Origin: a virus
Lineage: Duplodnaviria > Heunggongvirae > Uroviricota > Caudoviricetes
Length of the DNA stretch: 23,271 nt
IMG/VR virus record: IMGVR_UViG_2563366867_000008
Strand: one strand, 5' to 3'
The position numbers and the translations under genes were made by a program. Positions 2,786-17,692 of the stretch are shown here, piece by piece; within the stretch, counting starts at the first letter, position 1, and each line of letters opens with the position of its first letter. The notes under the pieces are model-generated. The model saw only the letters and a list, made by a program, of their open reading frames with translations. It ran no database searches and was not told the origin of the DNA.

Positions 2786-3043
2786 TCACGCAGTAAACTC
2801 CTTCACCAGTATTTCAAACTGGCTTACCTGTCCTTCCAGTTCCGCCACGCAATCCACCAGCTCATCCACCGCCTTTTGTGTGCGGTGTTTTGCCTGCAGC
2901 AGATCACGAAGCGCCGGAGTAAGCTGCTTGCGGAGCGTATCTTTTTTCACGCTCGTTTTTTCCATCTGTTCAGCACAACGAAGCATCTCCTGCGCCTGCC
3001 GACGAAGTTGTTCCGGTGAAACAGTGATTGTTCTGTTGTTCAA
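2786..3043 (-). CDS. Hypothetical small coiled-coil protein
   Basis: 85-aa ORF whose start overlaps the DnaB-like stop (translational coupling); no recognisable domain. Confidence 0.45.
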   Translation of the reverse strand: MNNRTITVSPEQLRRQAQEMLRCAEQMEKTSVKKDTLRKQLTPALRDLLQAKHRTQKAVDELVDCVAELEGQVSQFEILVKEFTA

Positions 3044-4440
3044 AATAAACGCTCCGTTTTACTGCCCGACATGCGGTTATTGCTGTATCTGCGCGGATTG
3101 CCCGGCGTCATGGGAGTGGAAAGAACCCGGGCACTCTCCTGGTCCACAGGCAGAAAATGTCCGTTATGAAAACGCCGGTAAATGGTCCCGAGTGTGCCAT
3201 TACGCTGTTTCGTGATGTTGATTTCTGCTATGCCTCTGGCCTGTGTATCCGGGTTATACACCTCATCCCTGTAAAGCATCAGAATGATATCGGCATCAGC
3301 CTCTATTTCCCCGGAGTTTTTCAGGTCTGAGTTCATGGGACGTTTATTGGGTCTGGATTCCACGCCTCGGGAGAGCTGGCTCAGAGCAATCAGCGGGAAA
3401 CCGCCGGATTTTGCCAGGCTTTTAAGTCCCTTTGAGATTTCCCCCACAGCAAGGTCGTGACGCCCCGTGCTGCGGGTTTTAATCAGACCGAGGTAATCGA
3501 CCACCACCAGCGCCGTTTCCGGGTGTTTCATCCGGTGGTGCTTCGTGGTTGCACATATCTCATCAATGGTCAGGTTTGCCTGATCCACCATCCAGATATT
3601 ACGCCCCGTCATTCGTCCCACGCCCTGCGAGAAACGCGCCCAGTCTTCATCTTCAAAACGGGCAACAGACTTAAGACGGGATACCGGCATTCCACCGGCA
3701 GCAGACACCATACGTTCACCAATCTGGATGTTCGCCATCTCCATGGTGAACAGAAGCACGCCATGCCCCTGCTCAGTCACCTTGTCGATGATGTCCAGCG
3801 CAAGTTCGGTTTTCCCCATCGAAGGACGGGCGGCAATGAATACCAGGTCTCCGGGCTCCATACCGCCCGTTTTTGCGTCCAGTTCATCAATACCGGTCAT
3901 CAGCGCCCTGGATTTCTCCAGTCCCTGATTGCGGCATTCAACACGGTCGACCACTTCCGGAAGGACATCATCAATGTGAACCGGCTGAATGACGCCCTTT
4001 CCGGTCGACAGTGAGGCCATCATGTTCTGCACATCCTTCAGGGCATCCTCGGCTGCTTCACAGGTATACGCATCACGTAAATTCTGTAATGCTTCAGTCA
4101 GTGTTTTTTCTGCATCGCGCAGTGCGGCATTGCGCCGCAACGCTGCGACATAGTGCTCCAGTGAAGACTTCACCCAGGTTTTGCGTCCGGTGTCGGTAAT
4201 CACCGGGGCAAGTTCCGGCATCTCATTGCACAGCAGTACGGGGTCAATGACGCCGGATATGCTAGCCTGTCTGCAAATCCCCGCGTAAATATCCCGGTAC
4301 TGACGCACAAAAAATACATCCGCCGGAAGTGTGGCCAGAATATCCATCACTTCCGGATCGGCCCCACGCAGAAAAAACGCACCGATGACAGCGCCTTCCA
4401 GGTCATCGTTACGCCATGCCGGGGTGTTCTGGCTGGTCAT
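3040..4440 (-). CDS. Replicative DNA helicase, DnaB family
   Basis: 466 aa; Walker A ARPSMGKTE, Walker B-like region and overall DnaB-like layout; start overlaps upstream stop. Confidence 0.85.
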   Translation of the reverse strand: MTSQNTPAWRNDDLEGAVIGAFFLRGADPEVMDILATLPADVFFVRQYRDIYAGICRQASISGVIDPVLLCNEMPELAPVITDTGRKTWVKSSLEHYVAALRRNAALRDAEKTLTEALQNLRDAYTCEAAEDALKDVQNMMASLSTGKGVIQPVHIDDVLPEVVDRVECRNQGLEKSRALMTGIDELDAKTGGMEPGDLVFIAARPSMGKTELALDIIDKVTEQGHGVLLFTMEMANIQIGERMVSAAGGMPVSRLKSVARFEDEDWARFSQGVGRMTGRNIWMVDQANLTIDEICATTKHHRMKHPETALVVVDYLGLIKTRSTGRHDLAVGEISKGLKSLAKSGGFPLIALSQLSRGVESRPNKRPMNSDLKNSGEIEADADIILMLYRDEVYNPDTQARGIAEINITKQRNGTLGTIYRRFHNGHFLPVDQESARVLSTPMTPGNPRRYSNNRMSGSKTERLF

Positions 4441-5345
4441 GCGGCAACACCTCCGATACGAGAACGGTAGCTGGGCCAGTTAAACGACAACCAGTTGCGC
4501 CCGCCATCGGTGATTCTGTCGGCAATCCGGGGACTGATGAACGCCCACAATTCTTCCGGTGAAAGGTTGCTGATCAGGATAGTTGGCAAAATACCCTCAT
4601 ACCGGGCATTGATAATTTCCTGCAAAATGGCCATTTCAGCCGCACTGCCAAACTGAACGCCGACTTCGTCGACAATCAGCAAATCCAGTGACGCATAATG
4701 CTCAATGACGTCATCCGCTGTTTTTTCACTGTCATTCCGCCAGCAGTTTTTCACAGCCCGGGTAAGGCGCATCACGTCGGTGATCTCCACACTGGCCAGA
4801 TAGTTACGGATGATGTGTTTTGCCATTGATACCGCCAGATGATTTTTCCCGGTACCGCAACTGCCGGTCATAACAAGACTGGTACCGTTCTCCAGCATAT
4901 CTGGCCAGTTCTCCGCATAGCGGCGACAGGCCGCAAGATTTCTGGCTGCGTCAGGATTAACCTCCAGATAATTATCAAACTCGCAGTCCCGAAAACGCAG
5001 AGCAATTCCGGCGTTATCAGTCAGTTCTTCCGCCTTGAGGGACGACAGTTCCATGGTCAAATCACTGGCCTCAGCGATCAAGCAGTCAGGGCAGCATGAA
5101 ATTTTTTCTCTGTCCTCGCCATTACGATCGATCCACACCAGTATATGCGTACGATATTTACCGTGTTTTTCGCAATATCCGCGACCTTCACGCATCAGGC
5201 AGGAACGATAAGGCCATGGCTTTTCGCCCTTCTGAGCAAATGCAATCTCTGCCCGTAACTCATCCATTTCTGCCCGTAACTCATCCATTCGCGCCTGTAG
5301 TCTTGTTTGTTTCTCACGTTGGTCAATCGTCATCATCGCTGTCAC
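4437..5345 (-). CDS. DnaC/IstB-like AAA+ helicase loader with Cys-rich N-terminal region
   Basis: 302 aa; Walker A GSCGTGKNH, Walker B LLIVDEVG; contains an in-frame 21-bp tandem duplication (MDELRAE x2). Confidence 0.8.
   Translation of the reverse strand: MTAMMTIDQREKQTRLQARMDELRAEMDELRAEIAFAQKGEKPWPYRSCLMREGRGYCEKHGKYRTHILVWIDRNGEDREKISCCPDCLIAEASDLTMELSSLKAEELTDNAGIALRFRDCEFDNYLEVNPDAARNLAACRRYAENWPDMLENGTSLVMTGSCGTGKNHLAVSMAKHIIRNYLASVEITDVMRLTRAVKNCWRNDSEKTADDVIEHYASLDLLIVDEVGVQFGSAAEMAILQEIINARYEGILPTILISNLSPEELWAFISPRIADRITDGGRNWLSFNWPSYRSRIGGVAA
5247..5288. repeat. Perfect 21-bp tandem duplication (2 copies) inside the DnaC-like gene
   Basis: tctgcccgtaactcatccatt repeated head-to-tail at 5247-5267 and 5268-5288. 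Confidence 0.9.
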
Positions 5346-5346
5346 C

Positions 5347-6273
5347 TCAGAATGTCAATTTGTTACTGGATTTACCGAATTTGTCAGACATGGCTCCCAG
5401 GCCAGCCAGGACATCGACCTGTCGCTGTCGCCCACCTCCGTGAGCGGCTGGCTGTTGCCAGTAATCTTCGAAGTGACGATCGGGTCCAAAGAACGTCGCA
5501 GCCTGCTTCACGAACTGTGTGCCGGTATTTCCTGTAGCACGTACCCAGGCGGCATACCGCTTCACGCCATCAAGCATGGTCTCCGGTTTTATTCCCTCCC
5601 TGATACGGGCTTTCCAGGCTTTGAAGGCTGCTGATTTGGAATTGCCACCAGCACGTTTGGGATATTCCTGCCAGGCCTGTTCAAATTCCGGTGAATATTC
5701 CTGTCTGGCAGAACGCGCTGGTGCAGACGCGTCAGCGGATGCGCCAATATCTTGCGGTTCATGTTTTGAATTTACTGGTGGTTCATGTTTTAAACCTTGT
5801 GGATCTGGAGTCAGATTCTGAAGGGTCAAACGCGTATTTTTGCCAGAATCTGAAGGGTCAAACACGCCTGAACATACAGATTCTGACGGTTCAGATTTTG
5901 AAGGTTCAGAATCTGAAGGGTCACGTAATACTGAAAGTCTGCGCTGCTGTTTCAGTTCTGCAACCTTATCCCGCTCAGTTCTGGCAAGCTGCTCAAGCCG
6001 ATCAGCATTCAGATGATAAAGATTGGACGTATTACGGTTACCTTTGCGGCGTGACTGACGCGTCAGCCAGCCATCAGCCTCCAGTTCGGAGATTGCCGTT
6101 CTGACTGTACTTTCTCCCAATCCAAGCTGTCGACATATGGTTTCAACACCCGGGTAGCACACCCCGTCATCATTCGAATAATCAGCCAGGCGCGCCATAA
6201 TCATCAGTTTTGCACCTTTGACGCCATATGCTGCGCATGCATCCCAGACATTACCGAGGATCTTGCTACTCAT
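5347..6273 (-). CDS. Replication initiator, O-like (N-terminal HTH, Pro/Ser/Asp-rich linker)
   Basis: 308 aa; position directly upstream of DnaC/DnaB-like genes; iteron array lies within the linker-coding region. Confidence 0.65.
   Translation of the reverse strand: MSSKILGNVWDACAAYGVKGAKLMIMARLADYSNDDGVCYPGVETICRQLGLGESTVRTAISELEADGWLTRQSRRKGNRNTSNLYHLNADRLEQLARTERDKVAELKQQRRLSVLRDPSDSEPSKSEPSESVCSGVFDPSDSGKNTRLTLQNLTPDPQGLKHEPPVNSKHEPQDIGASADASAPARSARQEYSPEFEQAWQEYPKRAGGNSKSAAFKAWKARIREGIKPETMLDGVKRYAAWVRATGNTGTQFVKQAATFFGPDRHFEDYWQQPAAHGGGRQRQVDVLAGLGAMSDKFGKSSNKLTF
5757..5925. repeat. Iteron array plus AT-rich repeat: putative phage origin of replication inside the O-like gene
   Basis: Five copies of CAGAWTCTGAAGGGTCA-like 17-mers (starts 5812, 5844, 5877, 5892, 5907), flanked by duplicated GGTTCATGTTTT at 5756-5766 and 5781-5791. 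Confidence 0.7.
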
Positions 6274-6494: not shown

Positions 6495-6685
6495 GGACGC
6501 ACCTCCGCCGTAGTTACGTATTTAACCGGGCTACCTTTCATTGAGATGGTTTCACACATCTCTGCCGCTTTCAGTTCCGCTGTTTTTCTGGATTTATAGC
6601 GACGGTGCCAGACAGATACATCCGTGCGAACTGATACATCGTTTCTGTATTCCGTAGTGGAGATGATGATTTCGTAACTAATCAT
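6491..6685 (-). CDS. Hypothetical protein
   Basis: 64-aa ORF translationally coupled on both sides. Confidence 0.4.
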   Translation of the reverse strand: MISYEIIISTTEYRNDVSVRTDVSVWHRRYKSRKTAELKAAEMCETISMKGSPVKYVTTAEVRP

Positions 6686-7245
6686 GGGCGAACCTCCTTG
6701 TCAGAACCATTCAGCCTAGAATCAACAAGTGCAGCGCCAAAAACAGCATCACCAACACGGTCGTACAGTTTGCTAGCCAGCGGAGATTCAACGGCCTTAA
6801 GCATTGGATAAAGCTGGCTTGTCCAGATTTGATGGATTTCACGCAAATGCAGGTATACGCCTCTGGCGTTTCGTGCGACAGCTGACATATCAGACGCATC
6901 GGCACCTGATAAACTCTTCTCCATCAGGTTAAAGGCGTTGATGTATGCCTCTTTGAACCGGGCAGCACGTTTACCCGTGAAACCCATAGCAAGAAATGCA
7001 AAACCGTCTCGTGTGATTTGATAGCAAGGGAGCTTGCGTGTACCGCCGTTCGGTTGATTTACCGAAATCGATGTCTCCGCAAAATTGCGGGCACAAAACT
7101 CTGGAGAACAATCCAAAATGCGAATCTTTTTCAGAACATCGTCATGACGTTTAGAGAAGAAGTCAGCAACAGCCAAAGAAGATGTAACAGCCTGACCATC
7201 AACGATGGCAATTTCAGGTTGAGAGAGGGTTGGGAGAGTAGTCAT
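6682..7245 (-). CDS. Rha-family phage regulatory protein (second copy); start uncertain
   Basis: Rha-like motif IAIVDGQAVTSSLAVADFFSKRHDDVLKKI begins ~10 aa after internal Met at 7245; the longest ORF extends to 7548 but that 100-aa extension covers a hairpin-rich, terminator-like region. Confidence 0.6.
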   Translation of the reverse strand: MTTLPTLSQPEIAIVDGQAVTSSLAVADFFSKRHDDVLKKIRILDCSPEFCARNFAETSISVNQPNGGTRKLPCYQITRDGFAFLAMGFTGKRAARFKEAYINAFNLMEKSLSGADASDMSAVARNARGVYLHLREIHQIWTSQLYPMLKAVESPLASKLYDRVGDAVFGAALVDSRLNGSDKEVRP

Positions 7246-7631
7246 AGTGACAGCCCCGGTAGTCAGTTTTTTAGAAAACTCACCACATGGGACGCCAATC
7301 ACAGAGGTGGTGAGACGTACAGGGTTGGCGTTACCGGAGACTACCGAACCCGGCCCGACCGAAGTCGGCCCTGTACGCCCCACCATAATTTGGGCGTAGC
7401 AATGCTCATGACACGAAAAAACCGCATGAGCGCGGTTATGCTCAGTAATCAATTTCAGGACGCCAATCCCGGCACCCGCTTTATAAGGTGCGGAGACAGT
7501 GTAACGTCCCGAAATTGCAGAATCAATATTTGGTCTTGAAATGATCATATAGCTGCTGATATCTTTAGAACTGTTCTTGGATGTTTCGGAGCCGTTTTAT
7601 GCGAAACAGCTCCCCGTTATTGATGTTGAGT

Positions 7632-7657
7632 GAGCCGGGTTACTCCCGGCTTTTTTT
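7632..7657 (+). terminator. Plus-strand rho-independent terminator (orphan) immediately 3' of the first Rha gene stop
   Basis: Stem GCCGGG-ttact-CCCGGC followed by TTTTTTT on plus strand; on the minus strand the same hairpin is boxB-like (6-bp stem, 5-nt loop). Confidence 0.55.
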
Positions 7658-8364
7658 CACCGCTGCCAACCAATAACCTGAAATAACCCCATTTTCGGGT
7701 GATACCAGCGAGTCCCTCGCGGTTCTGCTTCCTCCATAACCCGATAAAAAGCAGCCATAAACGGTTCCACAGCAACAATTGCGCGACGTGACAACAATCC
7801 GTCCGGCGTCATGAACTCATGGGTGTCTGTAGGAATCTGATAGGCGTTCACCAGATTGCGGCATTTATCATCTGACAAACCGGTTTTTGCTTTCAGTTGG
7901 CGATATCCGGCATAGCCCTCACGAATAGTGCCCTTTTTAATTTGCTCGACTGTTTCAGCAACGTGGCTGACTTTTTCTTCCACCTGAGTGATCCGTTTCT
8001 GCTGACGAACTGCTTCAAGAGCCATCGCGGCAACCATTTCGATTTCGCTCATTGGCTTACGGATCTGTTCTTCCAGTTCGCGCCAGCGATCTACCAGGCG
8101 AGCAGTGAATTCAGGACAGAGCTGTGCGACGACAATGATGCTGTCGCGCTTACCTTGTTCTCCTTCAAACAGGTAATGCTCATATTGAACTTTAAAACCT
8201 AAGTTATTGATTCTTTCGGAAACCTCAATTTGAGGAGACCGGACAACGCCACCTTTGGCTAATGTTTCAATAGTGCGTTTCACATTGTCATGACGTTTAC
8301 CCACCAGCTCTGCAATTTCAACGCTGGTCATGGATGCTTTGCCGTTAAAAATTGCGGTGTTCAT
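7657..8364 (-). CDS. Rha-family phage regulatory protein (antirepressor-like)
   Basis: 235 aa; N-terminal MTSVEIAELVGKRHDNVKRTIETL Rha signature; strong RBS AGGAGA 8 nt upstream. Confidence 0.8.
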   Translation of the reverse strand: MNTAIFNGKASMTSVEIAELVGKRHDNVKRTIETLAKGGVVRSPQIEVSERINNLGFKVQYEHYLFEGEQGKRDSIIVVAQLCPEFTARLVDRWRELEEQIRKPMSEIEMVAAMALEAVRQQKRITQVEEKVSHVAETVEQIKKGTIREGYAGYRQLKAKTGLSDDKCRNLVNAYQIPTDTHEFMTPDGLLSRRAIVAVEPFMAAFYRVMEEAEPRGTRWYHPKMGLFQVIGWQR

Positions 8365-8588
8365 TGTTGGTCTCCTGTGGGCTTGTCATCTTCTGTATTC
8401 GCTAGACTTGGGTGTGTATATGGAATGCTCGTATCCAGATGACAAAGAATGGCAACATCCTCCGGAACACCTCGCGTTTTCCACTTTCCAACACCTTGAC
8501 TGCCACGAGGCCTTCCTTTCTTTGGGAACCTGCGACCAATAGCGGCATTGGTTTTAAATTGAATTTTTAATATTTCATAAAGGGTCAT
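8361..8588 (-). CDS. Hypothetical small basic protein in the cro position (doubtful)
   Basis: 75-aa ORF, ATGA overlap with Rha gene, weak RBS, low-complexity K/R/G/P-rich composition; no HTH recognised. Confidence 0.25.
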   Translation of the reverse strand: MTLYEILKIQFKTNAAIGRRFPKKGRPRGSQGVGKWKTRGVPEDVAILCHLDTSIPYTHPSLANTEDDKPTGDQQ

Positions 8589-8599
8589 TCTTTAGTCTC

Positions 8600-8680
8600 A
8601 CACCAGATACTTTGTTATCCAACGATGTTAACCACAGGAACCCAAAGTATCAAGAAATTCTGTTACTTTAGTATCAACAG
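8600..8680. promoter_or_regulatory. Right operator/divergent promoter region (OR-like)
   Basis: AGTATCAA half-sites at 8646-8653 and 8668-8675, inverted GATACTTTG at 8606-8614; lies between the cI-like start and the minus-strand early operon. Confidence 0.6.
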
Positions 8681-8699
8681 CCATGAGAGGAGAAGAAAA

Positions 8700-9356
8700 A
8701 TGAAGTCTTTAGGTGAACGTCTCATCAACGCACGGCAAAAAGCTGGGTTAACACAAGATGCGTTGGCTAAAAAAGCTGGGGTCACCAGAGTTGCAATCAG
8801 TAAAGCCGAGCAAGGCCTTACAAAAAGTTTCAACGGTGACACCCTTTTTAAAGTTGCAGCTGCACTGCAGTGTTCACCGCAGTGGCTTCAGAACGGAGAT
8901 GAAAAAGATAAGCATTGGGAAAATAATGTTAAGAGCTGCCCACAGAGAGACACAGCATACTCTTACCCTGTAATTAACTGGGTTCAGGCAGGATTATTCG
9001 CAACTTCTGGTGATGACTACAACATGTATGATCAGGATAATTGGAGGCATTCTGTAAAATACGCTGGTGAGAGGGGGTTCTGGCTGGAAGTGCACGGAGA
9101 CTCAATGACTTCGCCCGTAGGAATAACATTTCCTGAAGGAATGTCGATCCTTGTCAACCCAGATAAAGAAGTTTTTTCAGGGTGTTACGTCATCGCCAGA
9201 AAAAAATCTACCAATGAAGCAACATTCAAAAAATATATTTCTGAAATGGGAAAGGCGTTTCTAAAGCCCCTTAATCCACAATATCCAATCATAGAAATGG
9301 ACAATGATTGCGAAATAGTAGGTGTTGTGGTTGATGCCAGGTGGGATATTTTCTAA
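8700..9356 (+). CDS. cI-type repressor (N-terminal HTH-XRE, C-terminal S24 LexA-like autopeptidase)
   Basis: Start at internal ATG with RBS GAGAGGAGAAG; HTH LTQDALAKKAGVTRVAISKAE; GDSM serine and downstream Lys typical of S24. Confidence 0.85.
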   Translation: MKSLGERLINARQKAGLTQDALAKKAGVTRVAISKAEQGLTKSFNGDTLFKVAAALQCSPQWLQNGDEKDKHWENNVKSCPQRDTAYSYPVINWVQAGLFATSGDDYNMYDQDNWRHSVKYAGERGFWLEVHGDSMTSPVGITFPEGMSILVNPDKEVFSGCYVIARKKSTNEATFKKYISEMGKAFLKPLNPQYPIIEMDNDCEIVGVVVDARWDIF

Positions 9357-9379
9357 CCAGACACAAAACACAAAAAGAA

Positions 9380-9456
9380 ACCAAAGTATCAAAAATCACT
9401 TGCCACACCTTGATACCTTAGTTACCATAAAACAAAGTTCGTAACTGAGGTATCAT
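9380..9456. promoter_or_regulatory. Left operator/promoter region (OL/PL-like)
   Basis: AAAGTATCAA (9382-9392) and inverted TTGATACCTT (9410-9419), GGTATCA at 9449-9455, plus GTTAC...GTAAC inverted repeat; same half-site as the OR region. Confidence 0.6.
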
Positions 9457-9459
9457 CTC

Positions 9460-9876
9460 ATGATCAATAAAGCTACAACTCTTGACTGTCTCGAAGAACT
9501 GAAAAACCTCGGCAGCCTCATTACACTAATAGCAAAAGCAACACCTGATGCTACGCTCTCTAGCGATATAGAGTCATGCGCAGGACTGGCATGGGATATG
9601 ACAAATAGCATATCCAGAAAGCTATCGTCAGCAATGCTTTTACAGAACAAAAATTCTGCAATCAACAACCGTCTTCGCACCCAACGCGAAGCCTGCGGCT
9701 TAACAACCGCCGAACTCGCCAGGCTGCTCGATCTCGATGAAGAAATTATCATCCAGTGGGAGAGCGGAGAGTATGAACCAACTATCAGTATGCTTATCCC
9801 ACTGGCAAATATTCTTGGCTGCGATCCGATGTGGCTGTTAACTGGCGAAACGGCAGCAAAGGATATCTGCGCATGA
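9460..9876 (+). CDS. HTH-XRE DNA-binding protein (C-terminal HTH), first gene of the PL-side operon
   Basis: 138 aa; LTTAELARLLDLDEEIIIQWESGEYEPT HTH; occupies the position of N but has no arginine-rich motif. Confidence 0.7.
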   Translation: MINKATTLDCLEELKNLGSLITLIAKATPDATLSSDIESCAGLAWDMTNSISRKLSSAMLLQNKNSAINNRLRTQREACGLTTAELARLLDLDEEIIIQWESGEYEPTISMLIPLANILGCDPMWLLTGETAAKDICA

Positions 9877-10115
9877 AAAACTGTGATGCTTACCATATTT
9901 GTCTCATTGGTGAATTGCTTGATTTCATACAAAAAAGCACTGCGCGCAATAATAAAAATATAACATATGGTGATCTGGTAATAATTTCAGAGGATATAAA
10001 GAGCATCGCTCTTAAATTCAAGAGCGACGCGAGTATTGATGACGCTATTTACGCTTATCTTGCGAAAATAATTGACGGATCCAAAATCCAGCCTCTGGAT
10101 GAACCTCGTCAGTGA
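9873..10115 (+). CDS. Hypothetical protein coupled to the HTH gene
   Basis: 80 aa from ATG at 9873 (ATGA overlap with upstream stop); AT-rich codon usage; 3' end overlaps a convergent ORF. Confidence 0.4.
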   Translation: MKNCDAYHICLIGELLDFIQKSTARNNKNITYGDLVIISEDIKSIALKFKSDASIDDAIYAYLAKIIDGSKIQPLDEPRQ

Positions 10116-10272
10116 AAAACTCCTTTGATGAAGATGAGAACTGCTTCATAAACTTTACTTTATCTTCAGGTGAAACTACCTGACGAATTAATGCGGAGAT
10201 AGCAACTTTGTGCCAAATTAATTCTTTTTTGAGTTCTGAAATCTCTTTTTCGAGTTGCTCTGCGTTAATCAT
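10045..10272 (-). CDS. Hypothetical coiled-coil protein, own promoter, opposite to PL transcription
   Basis: 75 aa; strong RBS GGAGGA 4-5 nt upstream of ATG. Confidence 0.55.
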   Translation of the reverse strand: MINAEQLEKEISELKKELIWHKVAISALIRQVVSPEDKVKFMKQFSSSSKEFFTDEVHPEAGFWIRQLFSQDKRK

Positions 10273-10451
10273 TTATCCTCCATTGAGAGCTGAATTGAAA
10301 ATGGGGACCAACACGCGGCTACGTGTGGTCGTGCGCCGGACACGGATAAGCATCCGGTAACTGATTATCAATCATTGCGGAAACAGTCTCAATATGAAAA
10401 CACTTCTGAGACTCGCTATATAGCAGGACATATAAGTCAGCTGAGGAAGCC

Positions 10452-10817
10452 ATGAAAAAGTTCGAAAACATAACTGTTCTCCATGTTGATGACTTTGATT
10501 ATACAAACCCGGAACTTCTCCCGGAGGTTGTAAAGGCAATAGATGTTGCCGATATAGTGATTAGAGGAAAGAGAATTGTCAAAAACAGGCTCGCATGCAC
10601 TTCAGAAGCAATGACAGAAACAACCTCACAGCAAGATAATTACGAAGGCATTTGTCTGGAGCCTGATTCATTTGCGGTAAATGTTTATCATTTATTGCAT
10701 GCAACACAGGTATTACATATGTCCAGTAATCACGAAACGAAAACACTCGGCAGCGAAATTCTGAATTTTGCATGTGAGTATGCAAAAACTGCTGCCGAAA
10801 AAGAATTAGCGCAATAA
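10452..10817 (+). CDS. Hypothetical protein
   Basis: 121 aa; RBS GAGGAAG; divergent from the 10045-10272 gene across a palindrome-rich 180-bp spacer. Confidence 0.55.
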   Translation: MKKFENITVLHVDDFDYTNPELLPEVVKAIDVADIVIRGKRIVKNRLACTSEAMTETTSQQDNYEGICLEPDSFAVNVYHLLHATQVLHMSSNHETKTLGSEILNFACEYAKTAAEKELAQ

Positions 10818-10895
10818 CAACAAATATGCTCTGAACGTTTATTGCGGTTTTATCGCCGGGGATTGTTACAATCTTAATCCACAGGAGGATTTATT

Positions 10896-11009
10896 ATGAC
10901 TTTTATAAAGAATATGGCATCACACAAGACCGCCTGTCTTATTGCACAATACGGTGAAAATTACATGCATATTGCCTGCTTATTTCTGCGTAAAGCATAC
11001 GGGAAATAA
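10896..11009 (+). CDS. Small ORF (37 aa) with strong RBS
   Basis: AGGAGG 7 nt upstream of ATG; below the 60-aa cutoff of the ORF track; translated manually. Confidence 0.3.
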   Translation: MTFIKNMASHKTACLIAQYGENYMHIACLFLRKAYGK

Positions 11010-11012
11010 CAA

Positions 11013-11372
11013 ATGACACATGAACCCATTAATACATATCGTCGCCGTATAGCTGTTGCAGCACTCCATCGAATAAAACGTAAAACAGGTGGTGATCTGC
11101 TTATTGTTGACCTTCTGGATGGGAACATTACGACCATAGAAATAACAGAACAGTTTATAAACCAGTTGCTGTTGCGCTTTGAAGATATTACCCGTGGTGA
11201 ATTGGGTCGAGTGGAGGGTGAAACAGAATTCCGAACTGCATACCAGAATGCCATCGGGATTAATCAACATACTGAATACCAGGCTGAAACCGGAAAGTTA
11301 ATTATAGACAACCTTTTACAAGAGGTTATTGATTACGCGAAAGAAAAATATATCAGCGGAGGAATTAACTGA
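11013..11372 (+). CDS. Hypothetical protein
   Basis: 119-aa ORF, first of four tightly packed same-strand ORFs. Confidence 0.5.
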   Translation: MTHEPINTYRRRIAVAALHRIKRKTGGDLLIVDLLDGNITTIEITEQFINQLLLRFEDITRGELGRVEGETEFRTAYQNAIGINQHTEYQAETGKLIIDNLLQEVIDYAKEKYISGGIN

Positions 11373-11587
11373 TGGCTAATTTATCCCCTGTATCTGTTGT
11401 GCACGAAAAAGTGCAGATCGTTATGACAATTGAAAATGGCCAGGTAACAGATGTCTGCAAAGTCCGCGATGGAGAGCTGATTGCCAGCATGGATACATTC
11501 ATATGGCTGGCAGAAAGAGCGGGGTATCAGATAACAGCACCTGCTCAGGAGGAAACCAGTGACATTAACAGCAACGCGAATTCCTGA
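11372..11587 (+). CDS. Hypothetical protein
   Basis: 71 aa; RBS GGAGG; start overlaps upstream stop. Confidence 0.5.
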   Translation: MANLSPVSVVHEKVQIVMTIENGQVTDVCKVRDGELIASMDTFIWLAERAGYQITAPAQEETSDINSNANS

Positions 11588-11777
11588 GTGGGTCCACCAG
11601 CAGGCGTTGCTGGTCCTGCGGCGGTACAGATGCCGACGTATATTCCCGCATCGGATACAGCGCAACGGATATCTCAGTCTGAAGGTTAACCGTCGCTGGC
11701 GGCTGTTATCGAAAGACGACGGCCGGAACTGGGAAATAATGAGTCATGAACGTTATTCGGGAGAAATAAAGAAATGA
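11559..11777 (+). CDS. Hypothetical basic protein (GTG start)
   Basis: 72 aa; AGGAGG 6 nt upstream of GTG. Confidence 0.45.
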   Translation: MTLTATRIPEWVHQQALLVLRRYRCRRIFPHRIQRNGYLSLKVNRRWRLLSKDDGRNWEIMSHERYSGEIKK

Positions 11778-12166
11778 TCGACAACCGCACCGCCAGCGCC
11801 ATTGACCAGGCATTACAGAAACATGATACACCCGTCGGCCCGTTATTTTTTGTAACACATCACGGAAGAACAAAAAAATGCCTCACTCGAAAAACGGCAA
11901 TTCGTTACCTGGCATTCTTTATGACCACCCGCGCTTTTGAACGTTCAGGATTCCGACAACGCCATCCTGACAAGCGTTTTATCTTCAACGGGAATGAAAT
12001 ATGGAAACGTGGAGAATCAACCACAGAGTACACCCGCGCACACCAGCGAACAATCAGACGACTGCGCAGACTCATCGCCAGGAAACAGTATACAGAAAAA
12101 TGGTTCAGAAAATATGACACATGGAGCGCCGGATATTACGAACTGATGGCAACAAAACCATTCTGA
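11774..12166 (+). CDS. Hypothetical basic protein
   Basis: 130 aa; ATGA overlap with upstream gene. Confidence 0.5.
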   Translation: MIDNRTASAIDQALQKHDTPVGPLFFVTHHGRTKKCLTRKTAIRYLAFFMTTRAFERSGFRQRHPDKRFIFNGNEIWKRGESTTEYTRAHQRTIRRLRRLIARKQYTEKWFRKYDTWSAGYYELMATKPF

Positions 12167-12226
12167 CGTAAACGAAATTAACCATGACGCAATTAAATAA
12201 GGCAAGCTGAATACAGCAGGAGGACC

Positions 12227-12415
12227 ATGAACATTTATTTCAGAATAGTTATATCACTGGCAATTATCGCATGTATTTACGGATTGCTCGTCCCGTTTCT
12301 GATATCAATGAAGGATACGGTAGCGGTGATTTCTGGCTTTGCACTGACGTTTCTAACCCCGCCATGTATTTATACCATTTATAAGGGGCTTTCTTTCACT
12401 AAGGATAAAAGATGA
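12227..12415 (+). CDS. Small membrane protein (two predicted TM helices)
   Basis: 62 aa, hydrophobic; RBS AGGAGG; stop overlaps start of SPFH gene (ATGA). Confidence 0.6.
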   Translation: MNIYFRIVISLAIIACIYGLLVPFLISMKDTVAVISGFALTFLTPPCIYTIYKGLSFTKDKR

Positions 12416-13239
12416 AAAAAATTATTTTTTCTTTAGCCATTGTTCTGCCTGCCATTGGCCTTGTCGGTTGTGATCGTGTTGAGCCTGGTAATGTGGGCAT
12501 CAAAGTCAACAAACTTGGCGACGACAAAGGCGTCGGTGAAGTGGTCGGTGTTGGTCGCTACTGGACAGGCTGGAACACTGAAGTTTATATCTTCCCGACC
12601 TTTAAGCAGATGAAGACCTACGATGATCCATTCAGTTTCCAGATGAGCGATGGAACAACCATTGGTTACCACATCGGAGTAGCCTACAAGGTTGATCCAT
12701 CCAAAGTTACCACAGTCTTTCAGACCTACCGCAAAGGCGTGGACGACATTACCGACACCGACCTGCGCCAGAAGATAGCCGACGCACTCAACCGACTGGC
12801 CAGCAAAATGACCACCGACAAATTTATCGACGGCGGCAAGTCTGAGCTGCTGGATGCAGCTCTTAAAGACATTCAGGAAGAAATGACGCCCATCGGTATT
12901 CAGGTAATAAGCCTCTCATATGTGGGTAAGCCGGAGTACCCGCCTACTGTTATCGACAGCATTAATGCCAAAGTCACGGCGAACCAGAAAACTCTGCAAC
13001 GCGAGCAGGAAGTAAAACAGCGCGAAGCGGAAGCCAACATGTTGCGCGCGGAAGCTGCCGGACAGGCTGATGCGATTCGCACAAAAGCCCAGGCTGAAGC
13101 CGATGCTATTCGTTTACGCGGTGAAGCTCTGCGTCAGAACCCCGGTGTTATGGAGCTGGAAGCCATCAATAAATGGAACGGCACGCTGCCGCAATACATG
13201 ACCAGCGGTGCCAATACACCATTTATCCAGGTTAAATAA
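12412..13239 (+). CDS. SPFH/band-7 (prohibitin/stomatin-like) lipoprotein with C-terminal Ala/Glu-rich coiled coil
   Basis: 275 aa; signal peptide with lipobox LVGC; SPFH-like core; RBS AAGGA. Confidence 0.7.
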   Translation: MKKIIFSLAIVLPAIGLVGCDRVEPGNVGIKVNKLGDDKGVGEVVGVGRYWTGWNTEVYIFPTFKQMKTYDDPFSFQMSDGTTIGYHIGVAYKVDPSKVTTVFQTYRKGVDDITDTDLRQKIADALNRLASKMTTDKFIDGGKSELLDAALKDIQEEMTPIGIQVISLSYVGKPEYPPTVIDSINAKVTANQKTLQREQEVKQREAEANMLRAEAAGQADAIRTKAQAEADAIRLRGEALRQNPGVMELEAINKWNGTLPQYMTSGANTPFIQVK

Positions 13240-13310
13240 CTTAATATGCCCGGCAGGCCGTCGGGCTAAGGGAAAAGCAGATAAACACTCATAATACTCA
13301 ACCGCAAATA

Positions 13311-13652
13311 ATGAACTATGACCCAAATCTGACGTCATGCGGACGCATGGCGAAACAAACCGTTCGATTAACTTTCGGGCAATGGGAATACCGCGAAACA
13401 TTCGAAGTCACTGTCGGTGGCAACCTGACCGGACTCGATGTTATCAGTTGCGCTATTGAAAGCCTGTACGCAACGCTGCCTTATGAAGAAGTCGAGGATG
13501 AGCGTACAGGGGAAACAGATATCATGGCCACCATTAATATTGGCGAACTGACATGCCAGGATGAAGACCTGTCCGGAGAGCTCTGGCTTGCCGGGATGCT
13601 TATCTCAGCAGAAATTATCAGTATTGAACCCGCTACAAACATACGGCTCTGA
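13311..13652 (+). CDS. Hypothetical acidic protein (start uncertain, possibly 13347)
   Basis: 113-aa ORF, no recognised domain. Confidence 0.4.
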   Translation: MNYDPNLTSCGRMAKQTVRLTFGQWEYRETFEVTVGGNLTGLDVISCAIESLYATLPYEEVEDERTGETDIMATINIGELTCQDEDLSGELWLAGMLISAEIISIEPATNIRL

Positions 13653-13683
13653 AGTTCTCACTATTCAGAGAGCAGGAGAAAAA

Positions 13684-13926
13684 ATGTTCGCTTTGATTAA
13701 TCAGGGACAACTGTATACCGACAGTGCCGGTTACCCGGTAATAATTATTCGCTGCATAAACAACACTGTGTTGTACAGAAGAATTGATGGGCGAACACAG
13801 TCAGTAAAAATAAACGATTTCAATGAACTGTTTGAACGGATTGATCACCAGGAATACCGACAAATTCTGGCAGAAACAGAGCAGGAGGCTCATCTGAAAA
13901 AATTACGGGCCATGAAAAGGAAGTAA
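13684..13926 (+). CDS. Hypothetical protein
   Basis: 80 aa from internal ATG with RBS AGGAG; longer ORF from 13561 less likely. Confidence 0.45.
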   Translation: MFALINQGQLYTDSAGYPVIIIRCINNTVLYRRIDGRTQSVKINDFNELFERIDHQEYRQILAETEQEAHLKKLRAMKRK

Positions 13927-13929
13927 AGA

Positions 13930-14076
13930 ATGAATAAAGCGTTTGAGCTATGGGTGCGCCAGCGTTACGGCAATCGCTATGACCTGACGCGAGATGTTGA
14001 CGGCTTCTACTGTCGTGAAATTGTGAAACGAATGTTTGAAGTGTGGTGCCACTGCCGTGGGCTGAGTGTTGTGTGA
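13930..14076 (+). CDS. Small Cys-containing protein (48 aa)
   Basis: RBS AAGGAAG; manually translated; immediately precedes putative xis. Confidence 0.35.
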   Translation: MNKAFELWVRQRYGNRYDLTRDVDGFYCREIVKRMFEVWCHCRGLSVV

Positions 14077-14084
14077 GGTAATAC

Positions 14085-14321
14085 ATGGGCAATGTGATTC
14101 AACTGGCTCCCAATGAATGGGTTTGTGAAAGCGTTCTTATCGCAATTACCGGGCTCAAACCAGGCACAATTCTTCGGGCCCGGAAAGAATGCTGGATGGT
14201 TGGAAGAGAGTATATTCACGTATCACCAGACGGTAATCCAAAGCCTTCCAGTGAATGTATGTATAACAGAAAAGCAATAGATGCCTGGGTCGCCTCAATG
14301 AAAAACAAACAACCCAGGTGA
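14085..14321 (+). CDS. Putative excisionase
   Basis: 78 aa directly upstream of integrase in the same orientation; assignment is positional, sequence not confidently matched to a family. Confidence 0.45.
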   Translation: MGNVIQLAPNEWVCESVLIAITGLKPGTILRARKECWMVGREYIHVSPDGNPKPSSECMYNRKAIDAWVASMKNKQPR

Positions 14322-14376
14322 TTTAATATCATGAAATATGTAAGCTCGTATCGCTCTTGGGCGTCTGGAGGTATCG

Positions 14377-15690
14377 ATGGATAAAGTCAAATATCCAACA
14401 GGCGTCGAAAACCACGGCGGCACATTACGCATCTGGTTTAATTTTAAAGGTAAACGTGTCAGGGAAAATCTTGGTGTCCCTGACACTGCCAAGAACAGGA
14501 AGATCGCCGGGGAACTGCGGACATCAGTATGTTTTGCCATCCGCACAGGAAGCTTTGATTATGCTGCACAGTTCCCTGACTCCCCCAACCTTCAGGCTTT
14601 TGGGGTAAGTAAAAAAGAAATTACGGTGAAGGAACTTGAAGAAAAGTGGCTGGATCTGAAACGAATGGAAATCTCTGCAAATGCATTCAATCGCTATGAA
14701 TCCGTTGCAAGAACGATGGTTCCGAAAATTGGAGGCAGTAAACTGGTGTCATCGGTAACCAAAGAGGAATTGCTGTATATCAGGAAAGATTTGCTGACCG
14801 GGTATCAGAATTCAACGAAAAACAAAGCAGCAGCAAAAGGACGGAGCGTCGTTACTGTAAATTATTACATGACGACAATCGCTGGAATGTTTCAGTTTGC
14901 TGCAGATCACGGTTACTTAGAAGCAAATCCCTTCCAGGGAATTAAGCCTCTTAAAAGAGCCAGGGCAGAGCCAGATCCGCTAACTCGTGACGAATTTATT
15001 CGCCTGATAGATGCTTGCCGACATCAGCAGACGAAAAACCTGTGGTCATTGGCTGTGTACACAGGAATGCGTCACGGTGAACTGGTCTCCCTGGCCTGGG
15101 AAGATATCGATCTGAAGGCAGGAACAATTACCATCAGGCGCAATTATACGAAACTTGGTGAGTTCACTCTACCGAAAACTGAAGCAAGCACAAACAGGGT
15201 TGTGCACCTTATCCAGCCCGCTATCAGTGTCCTGAAAAATCAGGCTGAAATGACAAGACTGGGTAAGCAGTACAACATCAAGGTGCAACTACGTGAATAT
15301 GGACGTTCAGTGAACCATGAATGTACTTTCGTGTTTAACCCTCAAGTGGTTAGAAAAAGCGAACAGGTAGGTTTTGTCTACAAAGTCGATTCTGTAGGTG
15401 ACTCATGGGAAACAGCCATTAAGCGTGCAGGGATCAGGCATCGAAAGGCATACCAGTCACGACACACTTATGCGTGCTGGTCATTATCTGCCGGAGCAAA
15501 CCCAAGCTTCATTGCCAGCCAGATGGGCCATGCAAGTGCCCAGATGGTATTCAATGTATACGGAGCATGGATGACTGACAGCAATGCAGAACAGATCGCA
15601 ATGCTGAATCAGAAGCTGACAGATTATGTCCCAATGATGCCCCATAGTCACCAAAGTGACACCAGAGGCTTATTAAAATCAGTAAGTTAA
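14377..15690 (+). CDS. Tyrosine integrase (lambda Int family)
   Basis: 437 aa; RBS GGAGG; C-terminal catalytic region with R...HxxR...Y-type residues (RHTYACWSLSAGANPSFIASQMGHASAQMVFNVY); abuts disrupted host gene. Confidence 0.85.
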   Translation: MDKVKYPTGVENHGGTLRIWFNFKGKRVRENLGVPDTAKNRKIAGELRTSVCFAIRTGSFDYAAQFPDSPNLQAFGVSKKEITVKELEEKWLDLKRMEISANAFNRYESVARTMVPKIGGSKLVSSVTKEELLYIRKDLLTGYQNSTKNKAAAKGRSVVTVNYYMTTIAGMFQFAADHGYLEANPFQGIKPLKRARAEPDPLTRDEFIRLIDACRHQQTKNLWSLAVYTGMRHGELVSLAWEDIDLKAGTITIRRNYTKLGEFTLPKTEASTNRVVHLIQPAISVLKNQAEMTRLGKQYNIKVQLREYGRSVNHECTFVFNPQVVRKSEQVGFVYKVDSVGDSWETAIKRAGIRHRKAYQSRHTYACWSLSAGANPSFIASQMGHASAQMVFNVYGAWMTDSNAEQIAMLNQKLTDYVPMMPHSHQSDTRGLLKSVS

Positions 15691-15716: not shown

Positions 15717-16118
15717 GTGGAGGGTAACACCACGCTTTATGCCCTGCCGAAACCCGAGGTTGTCCTGCGCTGGCGTGAGCAGACCACAGATGACTTCCGC
15801 TTCTGTTTTAAGTTTCCGGCGACCATTTCGCATCAGGCAGCATTACGGCATTGCGATGATTTAGTGACTGAATTTTTGACCCGCATGTCACCGTTGGCTC
15901 CGCGCATTGGACAATACTGGCTGCAACTGCCTGCCACATTCGGCCCACGGGAGCTGCCTGCGCTTTGGCATTTTCTCGATTCTCTTCCCGGTGAATTTAA
16001 TTATGGGGTGGAAGTCCGCCATCCACAGTTTTTCGCCAAAGGGGAAGAGGAACAAACGCTTAATCGCGGTTTACATCAGCGCGGCGTTAATCGGGTGATT
16101 TTTATTAGACACGTTTAA
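15717..16118 (+). pseudogene. Internal fragment of a DUF72-family (yecE-like) host gene, cut on both sides
   Basis: 133-aa frame with no proper start; EVRH-containing DUF72-like motifs; frame ends 5 codons after a sharp GC drop at ~16100; recognition of yecE is from memory. Confidence 0.45.
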
Positions 16119-16168
16119 ATACACCATCTAAAACGATACAATCTAGGGCATCAGTTTTGAGGTGAACA

Positions 16169-17692
16169 ATGAAACGTGCCATTTCTTACATCAGGTTTTC
16201 ATCTGAGAAGCAATCCCGAGGTGATTCATTACGCCGACAGTCTAAGATGGTTAATGACTGGCTTAAGGCTCATCCTGAGTACTACCTTGACCAAGATTTA
16301 TCTTTTCGTGATTTGGGGGTGAGTGGGTTCACTGGTAAGCACTTGAAAGGTGGCTTAGGTGACTTTTTAACCGCTATCGAGAAAGGGCTTGTTAAAGCTG
16401 GTGATACGCTCTTGATAGAATCTCTTGACCGTCTGTCACGTCAAGATGTAGACCAAGCAAGTGAGCTACTCAGAAACATTCTTCGCTCTGGTGTAGATGT
16501 GGTCACCTTGTCCGATGGTGAACATTACACAAAGGAAAGCTTAAAAGACCCGTTAGCTCTGATTAAAAGCATTTTGATAATGCAGCGGTCGCATGAGGAG
16601 AGTTTGCGTAAATCTGAACGTATCCAAGCTGCATGGGATGCAAAGAAAGAAGCTGCTAAAGCCGGTATCAAGATTTATAAGCGTTGTCCTGCATGGCTTA
16701 AGCTTAATGATGACCGTAAGACCTTCTCTGTGATACCTGAGAAGGTAGAAACTGTGAAGAGGTGCTTTCAATTACGGTTAGAGGGTAAGTCTATTTGGGA
16801 GATTGTCAGGACTCTTAATGATGAAGGTCACCAGACACTTAACCAGTACAAAGCAGGTAAGTTTGGTCAAACCTCAGTGCAAGACCTTCTGAAAAATCGC
16901 TCTGTAATTGGTTACTTCACACCTAAAGGCTGTGAGGAGATAGCTGGTTATTTCCCCCCTATCATCCCTGAGACTGATTTCTACAAAGTCCAGCAACTAT
17001 CATATTCTCGTTATGGAAGAAAGCCTGCTTCAGATAAACCATTGAGTGTGAATCTTTTCAAAGGTGTTATCCGTTGTTCTGAATGTGGTCATGCTTTGAT
17101 TATCACAGGCTTTAGCGATACAAGAAACGGGATTTATCGTTGTCCTCTTCGTAATGAAAACCGTTGTAGTGCTAAAGGACTTTCACGTAAGCAAACCGAT
17201 GGTACATTGCTTGCCCTGCTATCCCGTATAGACCGATTTGATAGCGATATGACGAATACCATAGACACACTGAAGCTACACCGTGAACACATCTCAAGCA
17301 ATATTGAAAAGCTGGTACAGCTATCACTTGAAATTGAAGACTTGTCCGCTATTACCAGCAAACTAAAACAGTTAAAAGGTGAGCTATCACAGGTTGATGC
17401 GGATATCGAGAAGGAGACACAACGCCTTAAATCTATTGATGTTGGTTGTTTGTCTGATTGTGACTTGACTACAAAGGCGGGAAGGATTGAAGCACAACTG
17501 ATAATCAAAAGTGCTGTTAAAGAGGTCATTTTAAATACTGCTAAACGTCGCTGTAAAGTAACTTTTCACAATAGTAAGTCAATCACCCTACCAATAACAG
17601 AAACCCCCTCAGAGGACGTTACAGAGGCTATACAGTCGCTTTCTGAAGTCACTGAGAGGGGGTTGATAGATGTTGATGAGGTTATCATATAG
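16169..17692 (+). CDS. Large serine recombinase (serine integrase)
   Basis: 507 aa; N-terminal resolvase catalytic motif AISYIRFSSEKQ...RQ, recombinase domain, Cys-rich zinc ribbon (CSECGH...YRCP...RC), C-terminal coiled coil; RBS GAGGTGA; candidate -10 TACAAT upstream. Confidence 0.85.
   Translation: MKRAISYIRFSSEKQSRGDSLRRQSKMVNDWLKAHPEYYLDQDLSFRDLGVSGFTGKHLKGGLGDFLTAIEKGLVKAGDTLLIESLDRLSRQDVDQASELLRNILRSGVDVVTLSDGEHYTKESLKDPLALIKSILIMQRSHEESLRKSERIQAAWDAKKEAAKAGIKIYKRCPAWLKLNDDRKTFSVIPEKVETVKRCFQLRLEGKSIWEIVRTLNDEGHQTLNQYKAGKFGQTSVQDLLKNRSVIGYFTPKGCEEIAGYFPPIIPETDFYKVQQLSYSRYGRKPASDKPLSVNLFKGVIRCSECGHALIITGFSDTRNGIYRCPLRNENRCSAKGLSRKQTDGTLLALLSRIDRFDSDMTNTIDTLKLHREHISSNIEKLVQLSLEIEDLSAITSKLKQLKGELSQVDADIEKETQRLKSIDVGCLSDCDLTTKAGRIEAQLIIKSAVKEVILNTAKRRCKVTFHNSKSITLPITETPSEDVTEAIQSLSEVTERGLIDVDEVII

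Follow-up and report, generated by a model that had tools for sequence, protein, structure and literature searches.

A two-domain helical-hairpin/HTH protein occupies the N position of a phiP27-type lambdoid prophage of Escherichia coli

In phage lambda, the first gene after the leftward operators and promoter (OL/PL), transcribed away from cI, encodes the antiterminator N, and the lambdoid phage HK022, which has no N protein, keeps Nun in the same slot. Regulators with a helix-turn-helix (HTH) act in other ways: MOR of phage TP901-1 is an HTH protein of the lytic operon that acts on the repressor and has an anti-repressor role, and SinR of Bacillus subtilis is an XRE regulator that possesses a helical oligomerization module and is accompanied by a small adjacent paralogue, SinI. 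Here, we analyzed the occupant of the N slot in a 23,271-nt stretch of viral DNA (IMG/VR record IMGVR_UViG_2563366867_000008; the whole stretch is hereafter called the window), namely a gene for a 138-aa protein with a C-terminal XRE-type HTH. The region is 100% identical to a prophage of E. coli ZH063 and shares 93.5% identity with the Shiga toxin 2e (Stx2e) phage phiP27, and the window is a phiP27-type lambdoid prophage of E. coli. We favor, with moderate confidence, the reading that the 138-aa protein is a cI/OL-controlled two-domain early regulator, made up of a helical hairpin and a shared XRE HTH, rather than an analogue of N, and that the early-left arm may not need one.

Examination of the sequences around cI revealed a 14-bp dyad, GWWAC-N4-GTWWC, of which the window has four copies (0.33 expected), a count reached in none of 100 shuffles. 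All four exact copies (at 8662, 9377, 9412, and 9441) flank cI, and together with degenerate copies they form a 3+3 operator arrangement around the repressor gene (Table 1). The half-site and the arrangement are also present in two distant relatives, L029 and L031, whose sequences show an equivalent TTGCNN-17-TACNNT promoter layout with an operator. Since the operators and the candidate PL lie before 9460, it is fair to describe the 138-aa gene as the first gene downstream of OL/PL, and in this slot, as in being transcribed away from cI, it is like lambda N. An earlier note, made from the letters of the window alone, had placed an HTH-XRE gene in the N position under repressor control; the three OL-like operators and the candidate PL found directly upstream bear this out. 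L029 (2864–2905) and L031 (2861–2905) also carry a strong intrinsic terminator directly after cI, unlike the window (9357–9399) and phiP27, where this terminator is absent.

Further analysis of the 138-aa protein showed that residues 72–126 match Pfam HTH_3 (PF01381; E = 2.5e-11, 43.9 bits against a cut-off of 23) and that residues 1–66, the hairpin N-domain, match no Pfam family, which is consistent with the earlier description of a C-terminal HTH-XRE domain preceded by an unassigned part. In the AlphaFold model (25-sequence alignment; mean predicted local distance difference test score [pLDDT] of 81), the N-terminal hairpin continues directly into a five-helix XRE domain. A fold search with this model gave matches through the HTH alone, which is closest to the DNA-binding domains of the P22 c2 and 434 repressors (template modeling score ~0.9 to the target, ~32% identity). 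The XRE fold is thus shared with P22 c2, 434 cI, and DicA, but the net charge is opposite: the HTH has an isoelectric point (pI) of 4.19, with 5 K+R against 12 D+E, whereas the N-terminal domain of the cI of the same phage has a pI of 9.9 and the P22 and 434 domains have values of ~10. The whole protein is likewise acidic (pI 4.44; 11 K+R against 19 D+E), and its recognition helix reads DEEIIIQWE, compared with TQQSIEQLE in the 434 repressor. Unlike these repressors and the neighboring cI, the protein has no Peptidase_S24 domain (its Pfam matches are HTH families alone), and its hairpin is N-terminal, in contrast to their C-terminal oligomerization domains. The DicA model (NCBIfam NF007257) reached 46 bits, below its curated cut-off of 101. 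The ratio of nonsynonymous to synonymous polymorphism (pN/pS), computed among six loci with the same hairpin type (type A, see below), was 0.07 in frame for the hairpin and 0.10 for the HTH, compared with 0.78–5.5 out of frame; purifying selection is strong on both domains.

The 138-aa gene is the orthologue of phiP27 L10 (P27p10, NP_543062; 93.5% identical), which lies in the same slot after cI, and of the gene annotated as a "transcriptional regulator" in the yecE-integrating Stx1a and Stx2a phages. It matches PHROG 4739 (E = 2.6e-84) and is also linked to PHROG 4836, whose name, "CII-like regulator," is an annotation only: at E up to 0.1, the CII family was absent from the Pfam matches of the protein, which comprised nothing beyond generic HTH models. 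A search of one literature library found no paper on the protein. Members of the family always lie directly after a cI-type repressor gene and head an operon that runs through to xis and int, and they occupy this slot in many prophages of E. coli as well as in phages carrying Stx1a, Stx2a, Stx2d, or Stx2e. Sequenced phages that have a member comprise only phiP27, the yecE-integrating Stx1a, Stx2a, and Stx2d phages, and a small number of further phages of E. coli, and one relative with two HTH domains has been recorded on at least 1,000 contigs.

Roughly two-thirds of the best 120 of 158 homologues are 196–242 aa long, and the long relatives that we sampled carry a second, diverged HTH beyond a linker. 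Most relatives, including most of the Stx-phage regulators, therefore have two HTH domains, compared with one in the window. Since most relatives are 215–232 aa long, we suspected that the 138-aa gene and the 80-aa open reading frame (ORF) that follows it were a frameshifted 218-aa gene; this idea was rejected, as the extra length in the relatives is the second HTH, which is unrelated to the 80-aa ORF. The single-HTH protein reads as HTH1 followed by the tail of HTH2, joined at the repeated motif IPLANxLGCDP, and DNA homology with the double-HTH genes ends at 9828, inside the codons of this motif. The single-HTH form thus looks like a deletion derivative of the double-HTH form, albeit one that selection has clearly maintained. 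Two cysteines of the window protein, C79 and C121, do not vary within the family, a hint of redox or metal sensitivity, and the second HTH of P0001, P0002, P0073, and other double-HTH relatives has a conserved C-G-I/T-C (CxxC-like) in the turn after the recognition helix.

We compared the cI and N-domain types of 12 loci representing four unrelated cI types and found that the two agreed in 12/12 loci. Specifically, a cI of 218–219 aa (S24) is paired with hairpin A (the window, L001, L002, L012, L016, and L019), a cI of 229 aa (S24) with hairpin B (L008 and L017), a cI of 230 aa (S24) with hairpin C (L018 and L020), and a cI of 128 aa (HTH only) with hairpin A′ (L014 and L015). The sequence and copy number of the HTH and the set of genes downstream vary independently of the cI/hairpin type, and a nucleotide-level mosaic junction with other immunity types falls at 9673, which is the domain boundary. 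To judge from this pattern, the N-domain belongs genetically to the immunity module, and the protein is also like lambda N in having an immunity-linked N-terminal part and a common C-terminal part. Types B and C are detectably related (hhalign probability of 81%). No relationship was found between the type A and type B hairpins (hhalign probability of 0.1%), and the profile comparison of types A and C was also negative.

Searching 1.84 billion representative sequences with the hairpin alone yielded eight matches, none of them annotated: three stand-alone proteins, three HTH-fused family members, and two weak matches in proteins of 1,299 and 3,417 aa, which we took as spurious. The stand-alone homologues (P0127, P0128, and P0130) are 65–72 aa long and 37–42% identical. 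Two of them could be placed on contigs, where both come first behind a cI sharing 75% identity with the cI of the window, and the operator half-sites and the promoter layout are those of the window as well. Three to four further proteins of 61–72 aa are encoded in tandem after each, and the majority of these match PHROGs of small proteins without an assigned function. Since hairpins without an HTH also occupy the first slot, the conserved N-slot occupant of this lineage is the hairpin, with the HTH as its fusion partner. A further hairpin is encoded downstream in the window itself by a 121-aa gene (PHROGs 5451, 4587, and 4836), whose hairpin is 45% identical over 47 aa to the N-domain of the type B regulator P0073 (E = 3e-10) and which is orthologous to a 66-aa gene placed directly after double-HTH genes. 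Type B regulators have a small hairpin protein homologous to their own N-domain encoded next door (e.g., in L008). A logic shared with SinR/SinI or with TP901-1 CI/MOR is possible; there is no sequence relationship to either, the hairpin is N-terminal here, and, unlike in SinR/SinI, the adjacent hairpin protein of the window is of a different type from the hairpin of the regulator.

The earlier note had also recognized no N-like antiterminator, and our searches agree. Pfam scans of most called early-operon genes of both arms gave no N-family match, and no real early ORF has an arginine-rich N terminus; in real genes, arginine-rich stretches occur only mid-protein (in a 130-aa ORF at 11774–12166 and in a ParE-like ORF). 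The 138-aa protein differs from N in being acidic, in having an HTH fold, and in lacking an arginine-rich motif. The locus also differs from lambda nut: no perfect boxB hairpin, with a stem of 5–7 bp and a GNRNA loop, was found in the whole window, and both boxA-like strings lie within the minus-strand terminator hairpin at 10003–10030. A search of 8300–11100 against Rfam at E up to 5 returned nothing.

The earlier suggestion of put-like RNA antitermination fared less well. A covariance model built from nine put sequences (six putL and three putR) recovered the positive controls, HK022 putL and putR, with 97 and 72 bits, respectively, whereas its best match in the window reached 11 bits (E = 0.83) and lies on the wrong (−) strand at 13305–13373. 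Moreover, the PL leader is ~25 nt long, which leaves no room for putL at the position described for HK022 (PMC9378689), and put-like RNA was therefore rejected. The window is like HK022 in being lambdoid without an N protein. From PL to the end of int, we found no convincing intrinsic terminator on the (+) strand; the lone terminator-like site on this strand within 9430–15690 is weak, with a 6-bp stem and no T-run (13725–13740). With no convincing intrinsic terminator between PL and int, there is no sign of processive antitermination on the early-left arm. Late control is, to judge from the Q-family gene, exerted by Q.

The ORF coupled to the 138-aa gene is AT-rich, as stated in the earlier note, with a GC content of 0.37–0.385, compared with ~0.47 in the HTH gene, which it overlaps at an ATGA. 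Among seven related sequences, its first 57 codons (9873–10044) gave a pN/pS of 0.21 in frame, compared with 0.58–1.34 in the other five frames, whereas its last 23 codons (10045–10115) are unconstrained in the (+) frame (pN/pS of 1.46). It looks like a real, coding, narrowly distributed gene: its family (PHROG 23054) consists of five clusters only, the four full-length ones being 83–99% identical, and it was not called by the Prokaryotic Genome Annotation Pipeline (PGAP). Its AlphaFold2 (AF2) model is a modest three-helix bundle (pLDDT of 69). No match to a toxin or defense family was found in Pfam, NCBIfam, PADLOC, or PDB sequences, a fold search gave no match (best Foldseek E = 7.4), and comparison with the type A hairpin profile was negative.

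The 80-aa ORF, the convergent 75-aa gene, and the leader of the latter together form an optional cassette, since the segment 9849–10364 is replaced in RIVM_C019217. On the left, the cassette begins within the final codons of the HTH gene. Single-HTH genes from each of the four immunity types are followed by it, other relatives lack it, and most relatives (L002 and L008–L013 among them) have the HTH gene but not the 80-aa ORF. The 80-aa ORF is not part of the core function of the regulator, and its optional character argues against a core toxin-antitoxin partnership. The 75-aa gene belongs to an orphan family of six clusters only and has a pN/pS of 0.30 outside its overlap with the 80-aa ORF and 0.36 inside it. 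With its predicted promoter and terminator, it is apparently an independently transcribed, self-promoted moron; the terminator hairpin has no T-run behind it on the (+) strand. In phiP27 (L001, NC_003356), an extra T in a T-run at the equivalent of 10225 frameshifts the 75-aa gene, so that the annotated L09 is a different, shorter ORF; either the 2002 record contains a sequencing error here or the gene is a real pseudogene.

An unannotated segment of ~93 nt at 10272–10364, which is conserved at 81–93%, explains most of the 1,046 among 5,426 complete E. coli genomes that match a 1.1-kb query, including O157:H7 EDL933 and O104:H4. Its counterparts (L003, 3501–3593; L006, 3001–3092; L026–L028, 1201–1293; L005, 3001–3048) lie directly upstream of unrelated small minus-strand genes, whose Shine-Dalgarno (SD) sequence and ATG they hold. 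The segment forms two stable hairpins plus a helix that pairs with the SD sequence, and it has no Rfam family. It resembles a structured and portable 5′ leader of prophage morons. Its use as a (+)-strand antiterminator or nut-like site is not supported: the SD sequence and ATG that it carries serve unrelated minus-strand genes, no match came from the put model or from Rfam, and covariation in it is too sparse to fix the strand.

In the reading that we favor, the 138-aa gene would be the first gene of a repressor-controlled early-left (PL) operon, and the hairpin, which probably mediates dimerization or partner binding, would be fused to one XRE HTH common to several immunity types. Upon inactivation of cI, PL would fire, and the protein would be made at once and then act as a transcription or switch regulator, possibly by binding DNA as a dimer or, given its acidic HTH, by binding a protein partner. 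Several points weigh against this reading. Conventional DNA binding is uncertain for an acidic HTH that has D-E-E where the 434 repressor has T-Q-Q. The pairing of cI and N-domain could reflect mere physical adjacency. Since no terminator separates cI from PL in the window, the HTH gene may be expressed in lysogens from the cI maintenance promoter, and readthrough from cI could give some such expression. Finally, the terminator scan covered intrinsic terminators, and a need for antitermination at Rho-dependent ones is conceivable.

It is possible, though we think it unlikely, that the 138-aa protein works as a switch factor specific to its immunity type that binds proteins instead of DNA, its hairpin and/or acidic HTH binding the cognate cI (or Cro) or hairpin-only paralogues and so locking in lytic development after PL has fired, either in the manner of the anti-repressor MOR or by titration of the SinR/SinI kind. 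The acidic HTH with its D-E-E recognition helix would suit such a role, as would the strict match between N-domain and cI, which holds even between relatives with 75% identical cI proteins and 37–42% identical hairpins; hairpin-only proteins in the same slot and in tandem arrays, and the hairpin-only paralogue of the N-domain encoded directly downstream at type B loci, point the same way. However, the adjacent hairpin in the window is of type B and the regulator of type A, with an hhalign probability of just 0.1% between them, and physical linkage explains the co-variation equally well. A broader idea, which we regard as speculative and rather improbable, is that the first-slot hairpin is a component of the lysis-lysogeny switch specific to each immunity type, representing a novel kind of early factor with the cognate repressor, Cro, or the operators as its target; some phages have it on its own, and the Stx phages of the phiP27/yecE group have it joined to an acidic HTH domain or a pair of them. 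By analogy, it would work through MOR-like anti-repression or through SinI-like titration among hairpin paralogues. If true, the hairpin would take the timing and commitment role of N in lambdoid phages without N.

The other explanations that we considered are far less probable. The earlier note had envisaged a separate module under repressor control, regulatory or toxin-antitoxin-like; its regulatory half agrees with the reading that we favor, whereas a toxin-antitoxin or abortive-infection pair, with the XRE protein as antitoxin and the coupled small protein as toxin, is very unlikely. The ATGA overlap, the coding signature of the 80-aa ORF, its invariable location directly after a single-HTH gene, and weak, sub-threshold matches of the HTH to HipB/MqsA-type antitoxin models are what such a pair would predict, but these matches are generic HTH matches far under the cut-offs, the 80-aa ORF shows no similarity to toxins or defense proteins, it is absent from most family members and rides on an optional cassette whose edge cuts the last HTH-gene codons, and the operon holds a ParE-like toxin candidate at another site. 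We find it scarcely credible that early processive antitermination operates here through an unrecognized RNA (for example, the two-hairpin element at 10300–10360 on the [+] strand) or through the HTH or 130-aa protein as a non-canonical N: the conserved element does have the same orientation to the early operons in 7/7 distinct loci examined, the 130-aa ORF does contain an arginine-rich stretch, a real terminator does stand on the PR side, in the isrK/C4 region between PR and Q, and the element does form two stable hairpins on either strand, but the put model and Rfam find nothing at the element, it carries the start signals of unrelated minus-strand genes, boxB is nowhere in the window and the boxA-like strings lie only in a minus-strand terminator, and there is no convincing (+)-strand intrinsic terminator to overcome. 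Equally hard to credit is that the single-HTH form is a decaying, functionless remnant of a two-HTH protein; the HTH1–HTH2 tail junction at IPLANxLGCDP and the loss of homology at 9828 speak for a deletion, yet both domains are under strong purifying selection, and each of the four N-domain types has intact single-HTH forms, which also occur in clusters with many member sequences.

Table 1. Positions of the features discussed, in window coordinates
Feature	Position	Strand	Basis or remark
Terminator-like site downstream of Q	1278–1258		Terminator scan
Q-family late antiterminator	1347–1742	−	Pfam Phage_antitermQ, E = 1.6e-52
DUF968 protein	1745–2764	−	
DnaB-like helicase	3040–4440	−	
DnaC-like loader	4437–5345	−	
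HTH_36 protein	5347–6273	−	
Two Rha-type genes	6682–8364	−	With Rfam C4 and isrK RNAs
cro-like gene	8361–8588	−	
Right-side operator cluster, between cro-like gene and cI	8606–8675		Exact, 8662–8675; degenerate, 8606–8619 and 8638–8651
cI-like repressor, 219 aa	8697–9356	+	Pfam Peptidase_S24, E = 3.1e-22; HTH_3, E = 6.7e-15
Left-side (OL-like) operator cluster	9377–9454		Exact, 9377–9390, 9412–9425, and 9441–9454
Candidate PL	9400–9428	+	Sigma-70-like, TTGCCA-17-TACCAT; middle left operator spans spacer and −10
138-aa HTH gene	9460–9876	+	Pfam HTH_3
Type A helical-hairpin N-domain, codons 1–66	9460–9657	+	AF2 helices 7–27 and 31–78
Single acidic XRE/Cro-C1 HTH, codons 67–138	9658–9876	+	Pfam HTH_3
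Optional cassette, 516 bp	9849–10364		BLAST breakpoints; 156 unrelated bp instead in RIVM_C019217 (L012)
80-aa ORF, predicted three-helix	9873–10115	+	Start within the ATGA ending the 138-aa gene
Intrinsic terminator of 75-aa gene	10003–10030	−	12-bp stem, then T-run; inside 80-aa ORF
Convergent 75-aa gene	10045–10272	−	Called by PGAP; PHROG 20080; overlaps 3′ end of 80-aa ORF by 71 nt
Structured leader of 75-aa gene	10357–10270	−	With SD sequence and ATG; conserved
Promoter of 75-aa gene	10392–10364	−	TTGAGA-17-GATAAT; 10/12 positions match
121-aa gene	10452–10817	+	Type B stand-alone hairpin in the C-terminal 65 aa; PGAP calls a 68-aa form from 10611
Early-left genes	From HTH gene to 15690	+	xis, 14085–14321; int, 14377–15690

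The remaining features of the window are those of a lambdoid prophage map (Table 1). The cI-like repressor is labeled a LexA family protein in the annotation of strain ZH063. Past int, there is part of a DUF72 gene, DUF72 being the family of the yecE insertion site. Right after int and this truncated fragment, at 15717–17692 (+), is a gene for a 507-aa large serine recombinase with Resolvase, Recombinase, and zinc-ribbon domains, which suggests a second mobile element inserted beside the prophage; ZH063 differs from the window around this segment. Downstream of Q and of a DNA methylase fragment, at 362–876 (−), an STnc100 small RNA (134 bits) is accompanied by three tRNA genes at the site that stx occupies in Stx phages; no stx gene was seen in the window. 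The segment 7303–7491 (−), within the 5′ part of a long Ash/Rha ORF (6682–7548), encodes two Rfam RNAs, the C4 antisense RNA (82 bits) and isrK (59 bits). This module, which is placed between PR and the replication and Q genes and has its own terminator (7437–7420), resembles an RNA-controlled antirepressor of the P1 immI or Gifsy-1 isrK type. In the early-left operon, a 72-aa ParE-like toxin ORF (PF24732; 11559–11777, [+]) overlaps the 71-aa ORF before it and is followed by the 130-aa ORF (11774–12166, [+]; pI 10.8, arginine-rich stretch at residues 77–99); this trio (11372–12166, [+]), which is conserved in relatives, may be toxin-antitoxin-like.

As a catalogued orthologue of phiP27 L10 (PHROGs 4739 and 4836) with an ordinary XRE fold, the 138-aa protein is in part already known. 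What appears to be undescribed is the fusion of a hairpin to an HTH, the linkage of the hairpin to the immunity type, the hairpin-only occupants of the N slot with their tandem arrays, and the acidic character of the HTH. The early-left arm represents a lambdoid arm without a recognizable N, nut, or put, which fits a phage that may need no early antitermination there. The strict pairing of hairpin and repressor, together with the tandem arrays of hairpin-only genes, offers a concrete starting point, open to testing, in the search for a layer of the immunity switch that has yet to be described. The family heads the early-left operon of widespread E. coli prophages, including the yecE-integrating phages that convert their hosts to Stx1a, Stx2a, Stx2d, and Stx2e production, and if the 138-aa protein tunes induction or commitment, the release of Shiga toxin would be affected.

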